Assembly: GCF_013315695.1 (NCBI RefSeq)
Contig: NZ_CP054353.1
DNA length: 64,000 bases
Source: Escherichia coli
Lineage (GTDB): Bacteria > Pseudomonadota > Gammaproteobacteria > Enterobacterales > Enterobacteriaceae
Reading direction: 5' to 3' (one strand)
Position numbers: made by a program. Of the stretch, positions 26,701-29,700 are shown piece by piece; positions within the stretch are counted from its first letter, which is position 1; each line of letters begins with the position of its first letter.

Positions 26701-29700
26701 ACCAGGGAAGTTCAGTGTCGTATTGCGGATGGTATCTGAGTGCACTGCCACACAAGTGGCAGGTGTAGTGAGCATAAGGTGCGGCCTGTGCAGTACGGGC
26801 GCCCGTCAGACGTCCGTTGCCATCAAGAGCGATAAAGGATTTTGCGTACATAGTCATATTCCTTAGCCGCCAGACGACACGCAGGCAACAGCCGTCCCGG
26901 TACGGGCAGCGTGGTCAGGGTGTGAATGGCGGTTCAGTTAAAATCTGGACTGGAGTTTGGGTAAAGCAGGCTGGTTGCTGTTACAGCACTGTGGTTGTCA
27001 CACAATGGAACACTGACGTAAAAAACAGTCAGTGGGCGAGTGGATACATCGTTGCCGCCAGACAACAACCCATACTTTTGGTTTGCCGGATATTGGCGCG
27101 CCAGTCGTGCTCAACTCCGGCTACAGCCAAAATTGCGCTCACCGGTGCAGTGAGCTTTGGTATACTCCTTCGCCAGATAGTCAGCACGTTCCAGCACTTG
27201 CTGAAAGCCGGTGTCATCATTACGCGCCAGCCACACCGCCGGCCAGGCCGGAAAATGCACCAGCGTGGCATGGCACCCGACATCCACTCCCAGGGCACTG
27301 CACCACGCCTGTTTAATCATCCCGGCCAGAGACTCCGGAGCGCGGTAATCACCGGCACGACACCAGGTATCCCGGTTGACCAGCAGCATCAGGTGATAGT
27401 GTTTTTTACCTTTGCACTCCCCAAACTCCCGGGCCCAGACGTAATGCAGGGTTGTGGGATGCACGCGTTTACCTTCCCGATGCTTACGTTTCTGGTAAGC
27501 GTCGATTCGGGCTTTCAGGGCATTGATGAAGCGGGATATCACAGCTGCGTCCGTTGCTGCCGGTACATCCGGGAAACGCAGGTCAACCCGCAATGCCGTC
27601 AGGCGGGGATGAACATTCAGTGCGTGCCGCACCGTCTCACGAATACGTTGCTGCCAGAAGGGGTTGTATTTGTAGGTCATGGTTAAATCTCCGTATGGTT
27701 CATACGGAATAGCCACGTCGTAAAAAATGCGCAGAGTCCCTGAAGTGACCTCCGGCAGGACACTGTCTCAGGCACTCTGTGATAACCCTAACGGTCGTCT
27801 CCGGACTGACGGTTGAATTTTCAGCGTTGTTTTTTTAATGTAAAAAATCGGTTACGGGTAAGGCTGTGAGGAGGGAGTGATGGTGATACGCAAAAAGAAG
27901 TGCAGGGACTGTGGAAACGCGATTACTCATAATACAGTGTGTTGCCCGTATTGTGGTTCTGTCGACCCCTTCGGCTACTACCGAAATACAGACCGTATCG
28001 TTACCATACTGCTGGCGCTGATTATTGTGGTCCTGCTGACTACTGTCAGCGTCAGTGTGTGTATACTGTGTAGCTGGTGAGATAACGGTTCATGTATCCC
28101 CTGAGCTGACAGTGTACCGTGTATATTAAGCGTAACCGACAGGTTCTCCTTCATACCATATTAAATTTTTCCAGGTATTGCCGCTGCCTTATTTCGTCCC
28201 ATAAAGGAAAACTCATCTGGGTTTCTGACAAATACGCGAAACTCACAGCCCCTCAATATCAACCACACGTTGTAAGCCGGTAATACCTGAAAATCAGCCT
28301 ATTACCGCCCACGCCTCCGGCACCATTCCCTTTTGATTTCGAATTCTTTGTTGTCGCTATACCGCTTAATGTTCCCGGTCCTCCGGTGCAGATAACACCG
28401 GACTTATCGTAGCGCTGGCTAAAAGTTCAGGTGACCAGAAGGAAGCAGGAACACGATCGTAAAGTTTGCGGTCAGTTCCGTCAGTCGGTGGGCAACCGCA
28501 GAGTTACGGGCTTCCAGGTCCACAGGAGTGAGTCTATAACGCGTGTGAAAAATCATTTTTTCTGGCGTTGACAGAACACATTACAGGCTGCCACTTACCC
28601 GGTGTCCCGCAATACAGCCTTAGTGTTCCGTTATCGGGGATCCGGACGCACCGCAACAACCGGGGAAGTATTTCTGGTTTAGAGCTGTGTCAAGAGGGAT
28701 TTCTCAGCCCCTCACTCACCGGCTCAGTCTCAGAGCAGGAGCATTAATACGCTCAGTTCATGTCTTATACAGGAATTGGCACAGGGGGAGCTGGCGTGTC
28801 ACTGCTGATTTTACGCATCAGCGTTCATGTATTTGCACTCTGATACAGAATGCTTCACAGCGCTCTGTTACCGGAGAGATTTACTCTCTTAGCTTACTCT
28901 GGCAAATCCTTTACGTTACTCTCTGATGACTTCTTATATTTATAATACCAATCAGACAGCCTTATCCCATCGGTGATATCAGTCTCCTCCTCGCCAGGAA
29001 CGGGCTGACTCACTGTAACCACCTCCGAAAACAACTCTGCAATTATCAGAACGCTAGTTTTCCCCTTGTCTCACGAAAGTCCTCCCTCCTTTATCGCGCG
29101 TGCGTGCGGAAGCATCTTTTCGCAACAACCACCCGGGATTCCGCTACGGCTCTGCCATCGCAATCCCCCCGTTTATCTCCGGACAGCCACATTCCCGATT
29201 ATTTTTTACGTTTCTCCCCGGTTGTTATGCCAGTGAAGGTGGCGCGCTGTTTTCATGACCACACCGGCTGGTTTAACAACATCCGGAGGAACATTCTCAT
29301 GGCTACCCCTGTTTCGCTGATGGATGACCAGATGGTCGACATGGCGTTTATCACTCAACTTACCGGCTTAACCGATAAGTGGTTTTACAAACTCATCAAA
29401 GATGGGGGCTTTCCTGCCCCCATCAAAATGGAGCGCAGCTCCCGCTGGCTGAAAAGTGAAGTGGAAGCCTGGCTGCAGGCGCGTATTGCACAGTCCCGTC
29501 CGTAATTTCTGACCGTTATCCGTTCACCCGCAGCAGACGTAATCTCCGGCCTGCCGGCGGCATTCTGCTGCCTGTTATATCCCCGTGAGGAATATGAAAA
29601 TGAAACAACAGTATCAGACCCGCTACGAATGGCTCCACGAAAGCTACCAGAAATGGCTGACCGGCTTCACCCGGCACGCCGTATCCTGGGGCGTGTGTCA

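Follow-up and report, generated by a model that had tools for sequence, protein, structure and literature searches.

A probable hha relic and a predicted alpA leader in an apparently non-coding interval of a CP4-44-like island of Escherichia coli

What occupies the roughly 1.2 kb of apparently non-coding DNA that lies upstream of an AlpA-like gene in a gene-dense island of Escherichia coli? The interval, positions 28081-29298 of the 64,000-nucleotide stretch analysed here (the window), runs from the stop of a 67-aa zinc-ribbon/TM ORF (27877-28080, plus strand) to the ATG of an AlpA-type helix-turn-helix gene (29299-29505, plus strand). The latter matches Pfam Phage_AlpA (E 3.3e-7, 30.5 bits with a cut-off of 21) and is named 'helix-turn-helix transcriptional regulator' by PGAP. 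The flanking ORFs and the Pfam match confirm the layout given in the original prediction, and the statement that the interval holds no convincing ORF also stands, as the longest complete ORF is 79 aa, below the mean of 96.9 +/- 25.2 aa for the longest ORF in 500 shuffles that preserved dinucleotides. Because 77% of those shuffles reached at least 79 aa, the ORF content of the interval is not above chance. Nothing in the interval scored above cut-off in Pfam or NCBIfam, and a scan for promoters, terminators and repeats found nothing convincing. The covariance-model scan that had been suggested for known RNA families (Rfam 15, gathering threshold, whole window) matched IsrC elsewhere and nothing in the interval, and a search of 27700-29600 with E values up to 5 gave one chance lncRNA match, at 15.2 bits compared with a gathering score of 70. 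The description 'apparently non-coding' is correct in substance, yet one PGAP annotation is present: in identical sequences RefSeq/PGAP carries a 45-aa ORF at 28419-28556 on the minus strand, labelled 'HHA domain-containing protein' or 'hypothetical protein'. Several features make up the interval, namely an hha pseudogene, eroded flanks and the alpA leader. It probably represents a decayed hha module of a CP4-44-like (flu-yeeR) island with the leader of alpA itself behind it. The apparent gap would then be mostly ordinary, a dead known accessory regulator with eroding flanks, and the alpA leader could matter more.

The location inside an island, as first proposed, is borne out by the presence of YagK/YfjJ, AlpA, YfjI, a GTPase, Ag43, YeeR, IrmA and CbtA/YeeU. 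Gene content was read from the PGAP annotation of a 99.8%-identical record, and the order downstream of alpA/yfjI is GTPase-IsrC-Ag43-YeeR-IrmA-DUF905/932-antirestriction-RadC/JAB-YeeU/CbtA, which is the gene set of a CP4-44-like flu-yeeR island ('region 2' of strain 042). IsrC / IS102 RNA (RF00124) is a known non-coding RNA of this same CP4-44 island type, and its Rfam match in the window is at 34031-34267; however, this lies 4.7 kb downstream of the interval and has no similarity to it. DNA of the interval was found at 8609 places in 3690 of the 5426 complete E. coli genomes, with up to 7 copies of the module per genome, and 98 records carry the exact variant at 99% identity or more over the interval; in strains B7A and FDAARGOS_1077 the copies match the window here at 99.9% identity. 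The gap is therefore standard in this island type, and to call it unusual in a gene-dense island, as the original prediction did, was an overstatement. hha-like DNA was detectable by megablast in only about 3700 of the roughly 8600 module copies.

Searches beyond E. coli chromosomes bear on where the module came from. Similarity to 28081-29170 was absent from 80 alpA loci of other species, and no hha was found there either. From this distribution, the hha module appears to be a lineage-specific insertion in E. coli islands. A phage search with the interval gave no match, and the matches in the plasmid collection were 12 records (11 from E. coli and 1 from Klebsiella), several of them chromosome-sized. 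A plasmid or phage origin was rejected because of the missing phage match and because the plasmid matches were either mislabelled chromosomes or covered the hha coding part only, at about 78% identity. CP4-44 of K-12 was also discarded as a homologue, since blastn found no homologous DNA there and its yoeH pseudogene is unrelated; in K-12 CP4-57, alpA begins 43 bp from yfjH. In other species alpA is usually preceded, at a distance of about 108 nt, by a YagK/YfjJ gene of the same orientation. The interval was rejected as a remnant of the usual upstream gene, because 17 proteins encoded upstream of alpA in other species matched by tblastn only the inverted YagK/YfjJ gene at 27111-27716, and against 28081-29298 they gave nothing better than E = 3. 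The idea of a recombination site fared no better: the window contains no tRNA or tmRNA and no outstanding direct or inverted repeat, the copies differ by irregular deletions of an ordinary kind, and no att-type site-specific recombination site was recognised in the interval.

The nature of the module can be read from its sister copies. An intact Hha gene sits at the syntenic position, in the gap between YagK/YfjJ and alpA, in L006, L090 and L091 (70 aa) and in L089 (74 aa), and graded decay of hha is seen across the sister copies L088, L092, L004, L005 and L093. The ancestral layout has a 70-aa Hha paralogue on the minus strand, divergent from alpA and about 700 bp away from it, and this layout is still intact in some E. 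coli islands. In the window, alignment with intact sister genes places recognisable hha codons, about 21-70, at 28572-28419 on the minus strand, with possible traces of codons 10-16 up to about 28640. Compared with the hha of L091, the window copy has a 4-bp deletion at M54/N55, a 7-bp deletion at K66-Y67 and a 16-nt gap at codons 17-22, while the start and the DNA upstream of it cannot be aligned. Two frameshifts are present, and codons 1-20 and the start are missing. Additionally, tblastn with the intact L006 Hha split the match between two frames, with one HSP for residues 21-55 (71%) and another for residues 51-66 (69%). The remnant aligns exactly with the 70-aa Hha of L006, L090 and L091, so that descent from an hha gene is supported by syntenic nucleotide homology, but the window copy neither reaches the score cut-off of the Hha/YmoA family nor has an uninterrupted frame with a start that spans all four helices. 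The segment 28419-28640 is a pseudogene of an island-borne hha paralogue of the hha2/hha3 type. With three indels and its 5' end lost, the gene is dead, and its flanks are drifting and undergoing deletion.

The recognised remnant covers, by alignment, under a fifth of the interval. A decayed gene, one of the possibilities raised at the outset, is therefore the answer for about 150-220 nt (a frameshifted, 5'-truncated hha paralogue) and not for the rest, which is more than four fifths. A frameshifted conserved gene revealed by alignment was the outcome set beforehand as counting against the original prediction, and over those 150-220 nt the sister-island alignment contains one. The intact sister copies belong to the same family as hha2/hha3 of pathogenic E. 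coli (strain 042 and others), which are also tied to the flu-yeeR-irmA (CP4-44-like) cluster, and the module likewise has multiple copies per genome; the window copy differs in being a broken remnant, likened only to the hha2/hha3 type as a whole (PMC4864382, PMC6480617). The tomB-hha operon of the E. coli core genome also has an hha-family gene with several hundred bases of upstream DNA. However, the island hha stands alone and divergent from alpA, and no TomB/YbaJ-like sequence was detected in any copy: stop-free stretches of at least 35 aa, searched in six frames of six copies, gave no Pfam or NCBIfam match to TomB/YbaJ or to any other gene upstream of the island hha.

The PGAP annotation raises the question of whether hha is dead at all, since the 45-aa ORF could be a functional miniature Hha-like protein. 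It begins with ATG, keeps a helix-3-like motif (AVAHRLTELTAN), is listed in identical sequences as 'HHA domain-containing protein' WP_001418354.1, and its exact variant is widespread, being that of the 98 records. However, the match to Pfam HHA (PF05321) covers only part of the profile, positions 16-45 of 57, and scores 19.8 bits where the cut-off is 25. On NCBIfam Hha (NF008191) the ORF scores 18.9 bits against a cut-off of 90, whereas an intact sister copy reaches 109.5 bits. The last 14 residues are the out-of-frame product of the 4-bp deletion, and L093, the closest sister remnant, has an in-frame stop within the same stretch, so constraint on this frame is unlikely. There is only a very slim chance that a working protein is made from it, and the PGAP entry is better read as a pseudogene fragment. 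Surveys of the presence or absence of hha paralogues consequently need a check of gene integrity.

The flanks of the pseudogene, 28081-28418 and 28641-29169, gave no support for coding or for RNA structure. In the ten-copy alignment the spacer between the zinc-ribbon ORF and the hha remnant (28081-28418) is broken up by large deletions, of 27937-28291 in L006 and of other parts in L090 and L091. Within it, most sister copies are nearly identical over a block at about 28296-28379, and a 6-bp hairpin, CCGGTG-N7-CACCGG, without a T-run lies at 28383-28401. The former hha upstream region (28641-28935) is the variable part and the least conserved of all when the ten E. coli copies are compared (4.3-7.7 of 10 identical, many gaps); it is replaced or longer in L005, L006 and L089, and none of its frames matched a family. 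Beyond it lies a block that is conserved only within E. coli hha-type islands (28936-29169), where each 25-nt bin has 8-9.6 of the 10 copies identical and some strings, AACTCTGCAATTATCAGAACG for instance, do not vary at all. This second block is absent from L008 and from all of the 79 other alpA loci.

Both blocks are more conserved than the hha remnant, so neutral decay alone is not sufficient to explain them. One explanation is that they are island sRNAs, or platforms where H-NS, Hha or AlpA binds to control alpA or its neighbours. Over the two blocks, identity is 90-100% between copies with flanks that differ by 10-40%, a perfect TATAAT in an AT-rich patch at 28941-28946 fits the sRNA reading, and genes of this island are repressed by H-NS/Hha in strain 042 (PMC6480617). 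However, neither block has an Rfam match, and no sigma-70 match of at least 9/12 was found in 28936-29169. RNA structure in this second block was rejected as unsupported, because the alifold consensus is weak (-23.7 kcal/mol, 3 compensatory pairs) and the fold z-score is -1.08. The first block is partly deleted in L093 and L091, and the GC content, about 48-52%, is atypical of H-NS nucleation DNA. A regulatory role of this kind is therefore judged unlikely. Conservation is limited to one species, and recent spread together with gene conversion among the up to 7 copies in a genome could maintain the identity. Two further candidates for the first block were discarded. It is not an independent repeat element, because it occurs at 4053 places in E. 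coli as opposed to 8609 for the whole interval, and a small protein encoded across it on the minus strand gave only 12 sporadic matches, 11 of them labelled E. coli and all small hypothetical proteins.

A different picture emerges for the end of the interval, where conservation, fold and covariation delimit an alpA-linked upstream element (29170-29298, plus strand). The leader is kept in L008, where the DNA further upstream is unrelated, an nhmmer profile locates it in other genera too, again directly before alpA, and a covariance model (R1) has a single match in the window, at 29203-29302 with 59.8 bits. These matches indicate that the leader travels with alpA across the Enterobacterales whatever lies upstream. 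It consists of a T-rich box, TTTTTAC (29203-29209), followed by a long stem-loop (29210-29292) in which GUUUCUCC (29210-29217) is predicted to pair with GGAGGAAC (29285-29292), the Shine-Dalgarno region, and GUUGUUA (29221-29227) with UAACAAC (29274-29280). The minimum free energy of the window leader is -35.2 kcal/mol (z -2.27). In L045 the Shine-Dalgarno sequence is again paired (z -3.11), as it is in six further leaders from four sequence classes (z -2.6 to -5.0). Within E. coli the alignment contains a pair series of G-C (L006 type), G-U (L004) and A-U (window). The stem of the leader also includes a weak terminator-like site, at 29228-29244.

Covariation was scored on nested structures that were specified by the analyst after inspection of the sequences and then compared with shuffles and slid controls. 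In class A (18 sequences), 78.7% of cells are paired in the nested helices, 7 pairs show double changes compared with 3.3 +/- 1.0 in shuffled alignments (0/500), and the covariation score is 0.199 where slid controls reach at most 0.09. In class B the AUG itself is paired, 95.8% of cells are paired, and the score is 0.230 compared with 0.153 in shuffles (0/500) and at most 0.092 in slid controls. RNAalifold on the MAFFT alignment of class A returned short invariant helices only, with no compensatory change. A local Shine-Dalgarno hairpin (CTCCGGT/ACCGGAG) was rejected as the conserved fold of class A because it has no covariation and the nested model is supported instead, though it is an alternative fold in some members (L040). 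In classes A and B, the Shine-Dalgarno sequence and/or the start codon thus lies in a compensated helix, for which RNAalifold alone gives weak support. The proposal of a regulatory RNA is supported for the last 100 nt or so of the interval, where there is covariation and fold z-scores range from -2.3 to -5.0, and not elsewhere, where the consensus fold is weak. From these models the leader appears to hide the alpA ribosome-binding site, and these approximately 100 nt (29203-29298) are most likely the part of the interval that still works.

The open frames that run through this region suggest another reading, an unannotated plus-strand protein, either an N-terminally extended AlpA or a coupled upstream ORF, from a frame that is open from 28930, stays free of stops for 123 codons and enters alpA in phase. 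Stop-free stretches of 123 to 129 codons are found in the window, L091 and L090, and some indels between copies offset each other's frame. The leader also holds an invariant ATG (29227-29229) that is in frame with alpA in the window, and in L008-type and class D leaders an ATGA or TAATG overlaps the alpA start. However, the pyrimidine content of the strand, 60%, makes all three plus frames long here (123, 75 and 66 codons), and the first canonical start in the 123-codon frame is a GTG at 29104. The frame is broken in sister copies (a TAA in L005 and L092, a net +2 indel in L004), its amino acids differ between E. coli subtypes (RCFHDHTGWFNNIRRNIL in one and RRFHHQRRLRLTTSGGTF in another), and it has no family match. 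Read from the conserved ATG, the frame of L022 and of class C stops after 6 codons. Such a protein is considered very improbable, and a leader peptide from the invariant ATG was also rejected, as neither reading frame nor length is conserved.

Another possibility is that the stem-loop acts as DNA, either as the single-strand origin or nick site of the inovirus-Gp2-like YagK/YfjJ protein or as a set of CCGG operators. In most species about 108 nt separate the end of the YagK/YfjJ gene from alpA, so that the element directly follows that gene. Four motifs containing CCGG are conserved in sequence in class A, and the short CCGG helices do not covary by RNAalifold. However, in all E. coli copies, that of the window among them, the element stays with alpA, whereas YagK/YfjJ lies inverted at a distance of 1.58 kb. 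What the stem pairs is the Shine-Dalgarno sequence and, in class B, the AUG. In the sense of the mRNA there are many G-U pairs (class B pair 21-42, UG:8), which would be C-A mismatches on the other strand, and classes A-D have a common architecture but do not have the CCGG motifs in common. This makes a DNA element a distinctly doubtful explanation, and an RNA leader is the reading we prefer.

We tentatively propose that this leader belongs to an undescribed family of structured mRNA leaders that act as a translational gate on AlpA-type genes of islands and satellites in the Enterobacterales, though we would not put this proposal quite at even chances. Such a family may comprise at least four sequence classes of one architecture with the T-rich box at a fixed distance, and, just as tentatively, the architecture could be one in which a long stem or a three-way junction makes the Shine-Dalgarno sequence inaccessible, and in some cases the AUG as well. 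Like known leaders that occlude the ribosome-binding site (RNA thermometers such as ROSE and fourU, and translational-coupling hairpins), the alpA leaders are predicted to hold the Shine-Dalgarno sequence, and in class B the AUG, in a conserved helix immediately before the start codon. However, they have neither the sequence signatures of ROSE and fourU nor an Rfam match, which was also not found for six other alpA loci with E values up to 1, and their stems are long and more stable (-21 to -37 kcal/mol) than those of typical thermometers. The scan did not find a convincing sigma-70 promoter for the alpA transcript.

AlpA-type proteins are the switch by which many islands, cryptic prophages and phage satellites are excised or induced. 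If the proposed family is real, a conserved translational lock before AlpA genes would be a new control point for island stability: with the Shine-Dalgarno sequence paired in the stem-loop, translation of alpA would be off unless the stem is opened. An intact hha beside alpA would plausibly reinforce the silencing of this excision and activation switch, because Hha acts with H-NS and H-NS binds a related alpA promoter. In K-12, Hha reportedly induces CP4-57 excision and does not repress it. Hha paralogues are known to act with H-NS and to keep flu-yeeR genes quiet; hha2/hha3 are linked to the flu-yeeR cluster, and expression of its genes is raised when hha is null and in hns mutants (PMC6480617, PMC4864382). 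In K-12, deletion of hha lowered alpA expression 4.9-fold, and deletion of alpA eased the growth inhibition caused by Hha overexpression (PMC2408971). For this island type, control of alpA by Hha would be an analogy drawn from these other systems. In Shewanella oneidensis, H-NS binds and represses the alpA promoter of prophage CP4So, where the region upstream of an AlpA-type excision or activator gene of a CP4-like element is a control point for stability, as may be the case here; however, control in CP4So is transcriptional and was demonstrated by EMSA (PMC5148205). The region in the window also differs from that of CP4So in that it is not AT-rich, and its conserved feature is a predicted RNA stem over the ribosome-binding site.

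The interval 28081-29298 is bordered by a zinc-ribbon/transmembrane ORF of 67 aa (27877-28080, +) and by an AlpA-type gene (29299-29505, +; Pfam Phage_AlpA, E = 3.3e-7). It was originally described as a gap without a convincing ORF, which proved correct because ORF lengths fall within the range of dinucleotide-preserving shuffles (longest complete ORF 79 aa vs 96.9 +/- 25.2 aa; at least 79 aa in 77% of shuffles) and because the suggested Rfam covariance-model scan found no match over the interval at the gathering threshold, nor any up to E = 5. Between 28800 and 29300 the GC skew is about -0.2 to -0.3 and the + strand is 60% pyrimidine, so that long stop-free stretches occur in all three + frames, with no sign of coding. 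Less well founded is the view that a gap of this kind is unusual for a gene-dense island: of 5426 complete E. coli genomes, 3690 carry this 1.2-kb stretch by megablast, at 8609 places in all (median 2 per genome, maximum 7). The surrounding genes (GTPase, IsrC RNA, Ag43, YeeR, IrmA, DUF905/932, antirestriction, JAB/RadC, YeeU/CbtA) make this a CP4-44-like flu-yeeR cluster, and the gap is a standard component of that island type.

Part of the gap has homology to hha. A 45-aa ORF (28419-28556, -) is labelled either "HHA domain-containing protein" or "hypothetical protein" by RefSeq in identical sequences. It matched Pfam HHA only partially (profile positions 16-45 of 57; 19.8 bits, cut-off 25), and it scored 18.9 bits against the NCBIfam model "hemolysin expression modulator Hha" (cut-off 90) compared to 109.5 bits for an intact sister protein. 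When sister islands with 81-93% identity to the window were compared, longer genes were found at exactly the same position. Three (L006, L090, L091) have an intact hha encoding a 70-aa Hha and L089 has a 74-aa variant, while the others have 49-aa forms (L088, L092), a 58-aa form (L004), an annotated pseudogene (L005) or a remnant with an internal stop (L093). Aligned pairwise with the L091 hha, the window copy lacks 4 bp at codons 54/55 and 7 bp at codons 66-67 and has a 16-nt gap at codons 17-22, and the start codon and upstream sequence could not be aligned. Because of these indels, the tblastn match of Hha to the window is split between two frames. The window therefore carries an hha pseudogene, derived from a known accessory regulator and with its flanks drifting, an ordinary result that RefSeq annotation had already half flagged. 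A frameshifted gene brought to light by alignment had been named as what would refute the original description; it was found, but for about 150-220 nt only. An intact hha of the island type, used as a megablast query, still matched at 3707 places in 2488 genomes, although megablast may miss diverged remnants such as that of the window. Against the 8609 places at which the module (the 1.2-kb stretch) occurs, this is less than half, so loss or decay of hha appears to be common.

The module was also compared with 80 loci encoding AlpA relatives (67-90% identity), taken from genomes of other species. None of the 80 has an hha gene or similarity to 28081-29170, and the last 128 nt of the interval were matched in only one, L008 (JAIJJM010000108.1). 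That contig is labelled a Collinsella MAG and carries an E. coli-type alpA (90% identity) with its leader; it is probably a mis-binned enterobacterial contig. The module also occurs at 95.5% identity in NZ_CP079635.1, a 1.04-Mb Klebsiella "plasmid" record. By these sequence comparisons, the hha module is lineage-specific. In the 80 loci the median distance from alpA to the closest ORF upstream that encodes 100 aa or more is 111 nt. Six of 17 upstream ORFs tested were YagK/YfjJ-type ("inovirus Gp2 family") genes, on the same strand as alpA and ~90-190 nt upstream, usually ~110 nt; the remaining ones were not significantly similar to the window. The YagK/YfjJ gene of the E. coli hha-type islands (27111-27716, -) has the inverted orientation and lies 1.58 kb away from alpA, with the zinc-ribbon ORF and the hha module in between, which points to an inversion or insertion as the origin of the E. 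coli arrangement. When the upstream proteins from other species were used as tblastn queries, no other remnant of a gene turned up in the interval. The zinc-ribbon ORF, annotated only as hypothetical, encodes a CxxC...CxxC zinc ribbon and a hydrophobic tail; it may be dispensable, since it is partly or wholly deleted in L006, L090 and L091.

The flanks of the hha remnant differ in conservation. Across ten E. coli copies, 28081-28418 is a patchwork with large irregular deletions. Most copies share an identical 85-nt block there (about 28296-28379), which is partly lost in L093 and L091. This block is rarer than the module across E. coli and has only 12 sporadic protein predictions, 11 of them labelled E. 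coli. The least conserved part of the interval is 28641-28935. The following stretch, 28936-29169, is well conserved within E. coli and contains a perfect TATAAT (28941-28946). A stop-free frame of 123 codons runs on into alpA, but with 60% pyrimidine on the strand all three + frames are long. Evidence against a function here is that no full sigma-70 match was found in the stretch, the RNAalifold consensus is weak (3 compensatory pairs; fold z-score -1.08), the 123-codon frame is broken in sister copies by a TAA or a +2 indel, and no protein family matched. Conservation of this stretch and of the 85-nt block could reflect either gene conversion between the several copies within a genome or a binding or regulatory role. 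The idea that the gap holds regulatory RNA is not supported for 28936-29169, but it is likely to apply to the alpA leader (29203-29298).

The last ~130 nt are kept with alpA even where all upstream DNA differs (L008), and in other genera, too, an nhmmer profile of the leader finds the element immediately before alpA. All loci, read over the 130 nt upstream, sort into four or more sequence classes. To class A belong the window, L008 and 16 distinct sequences, which come from many genera; its leaders have TTTTTAC at a constant distance of ~95-97 nt from the ATG, and contain segments with CCGG. The leader of the window folds at -35.2 kcal/mol (z -2.27), with GUUUCUCC (29210-29217) paired to GGAGGAAC in the Shine-Dalgarno (SD) region (29285-29292) and GUUGUUA (29221-29227) paired to UAACAAC (29274-29280). 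RNAalifold alone recovered only short invariant helices in class A, and a local SD hairpin lacked covariation there and was rejected. With the nested two-helix model, 78.7% of class A cells were paired vs 72.6 +/- 0.9, and both sides had changed in 7 pairs vs 3.3 +/- 1.0 (0/500 shuffles). Five pair types occurred at one pair, and the covariation score was 0.199, compared to at most 0.09 with partners slid. Class B, an independent sequence, fits a three-helix model with 95.8% pairing, in which CAUCGUUU pairs with AAACGAUG (start codon included) and UCUCC with GGAGA; its score was 0.230 vs 0.153 (0/500) and at most 0.092 when slid. The SD was paired in the folds of 6/6 further leaders from four classes (z -2.6 to -5.0). 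A covariance model built from class A (R1) matched every class A leader and E. coli copy; its matches to the leaders of class C were weak, and in each case stopped at the alpA ATG. No Rfam family was found for the leader in the window or six other alpA loci, and a literature search found no description of it. Fidelity to alpA, SD pairing and covariation together make a structured, RBS-occluding leader likely. The main alternative is that the leader acts at the DNA level, as an element for the neighbouring Gp2-like protein. However, in E. coli it stays with alpA and not with the Gp2-like gene, there are G-U pairs on the sense strand, and the SD and AUG are involved in the pairing. A structured RNA leader would keep AlpA translation off until something opens the stem, and we tentatively suggest that it might represent a family of elements, not described before, that control translation on mobile islands.

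Class A leaders also contain an invariant ATG, as TATG (ATG at 29227-29229 in the window), although the reading frame that starts there varies: it is that of alpA itself in the window, L039 and L040, a 6-codon uORF in L022 and class C, and in L008-type and class D leaders one whose end overlaps the alpA start, as ATGA or TAATG. This ATG may serve to couple translation to an upstream ribosome, or it may be part of a promoter. A second leader-like element, a weaker one (TTTTTTTACG...CCGG...AACCGGA...ATG; R1 25.7 bits, E 0.022) occurs at L088:5232-5325 (-) in strain AR_0162, before another small ORF of the same island with faint AlpA similarity; no counterpart of it was found in the window.

Pathogenic E. 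coli have further paralogues of hha on the chromosome, hha2 and hha3, adjoining a duplicated flu-yeeR cluster, and in hha-null mutants, as in hns mutants, the genes of this cluster are de-repressed (PMC4864382, PMC6480617). Hha paralogues and H-NS co-repress genes of the flu-yeeR island (PMC6480617), and in a Shewanella CP4-type prophage H-NS on the alpA promoter blocks excision (PMC5148205). In K-12, hha deletion lowers alpA expression, and overexpression of Hha is less toxic when alpA is deleted (PMC2408971). The ancestral module would have placed an H-NS co-repressor gene back-to-back with the island switch gene alpA; in the window the co-repressor gene is dead and only the alpA leader is likely to be functional.

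As in K-12 CP4-44, the IS102/IsrC RNA (RF00124; 34031-34267, +; 66.1 bits, gathering score 46) lies just upstream of the Ag43 gene. Upstream of the module, positions 1-26000 are a mosaic of IS66, IS3, IS1, IS600 and IS21 fragments, with the fec operon, lpxM-virK-capU and a YmgB/AriR gene. In the whole 64-kb window there is no tRNA, so the integration end of the island lies outside it. The window is 99.7-99.8% identical to NZ_OZ547117.1, with an indel of ~197 bp near 32.3 kb (~32330), between yfjI and the GTPase gene.
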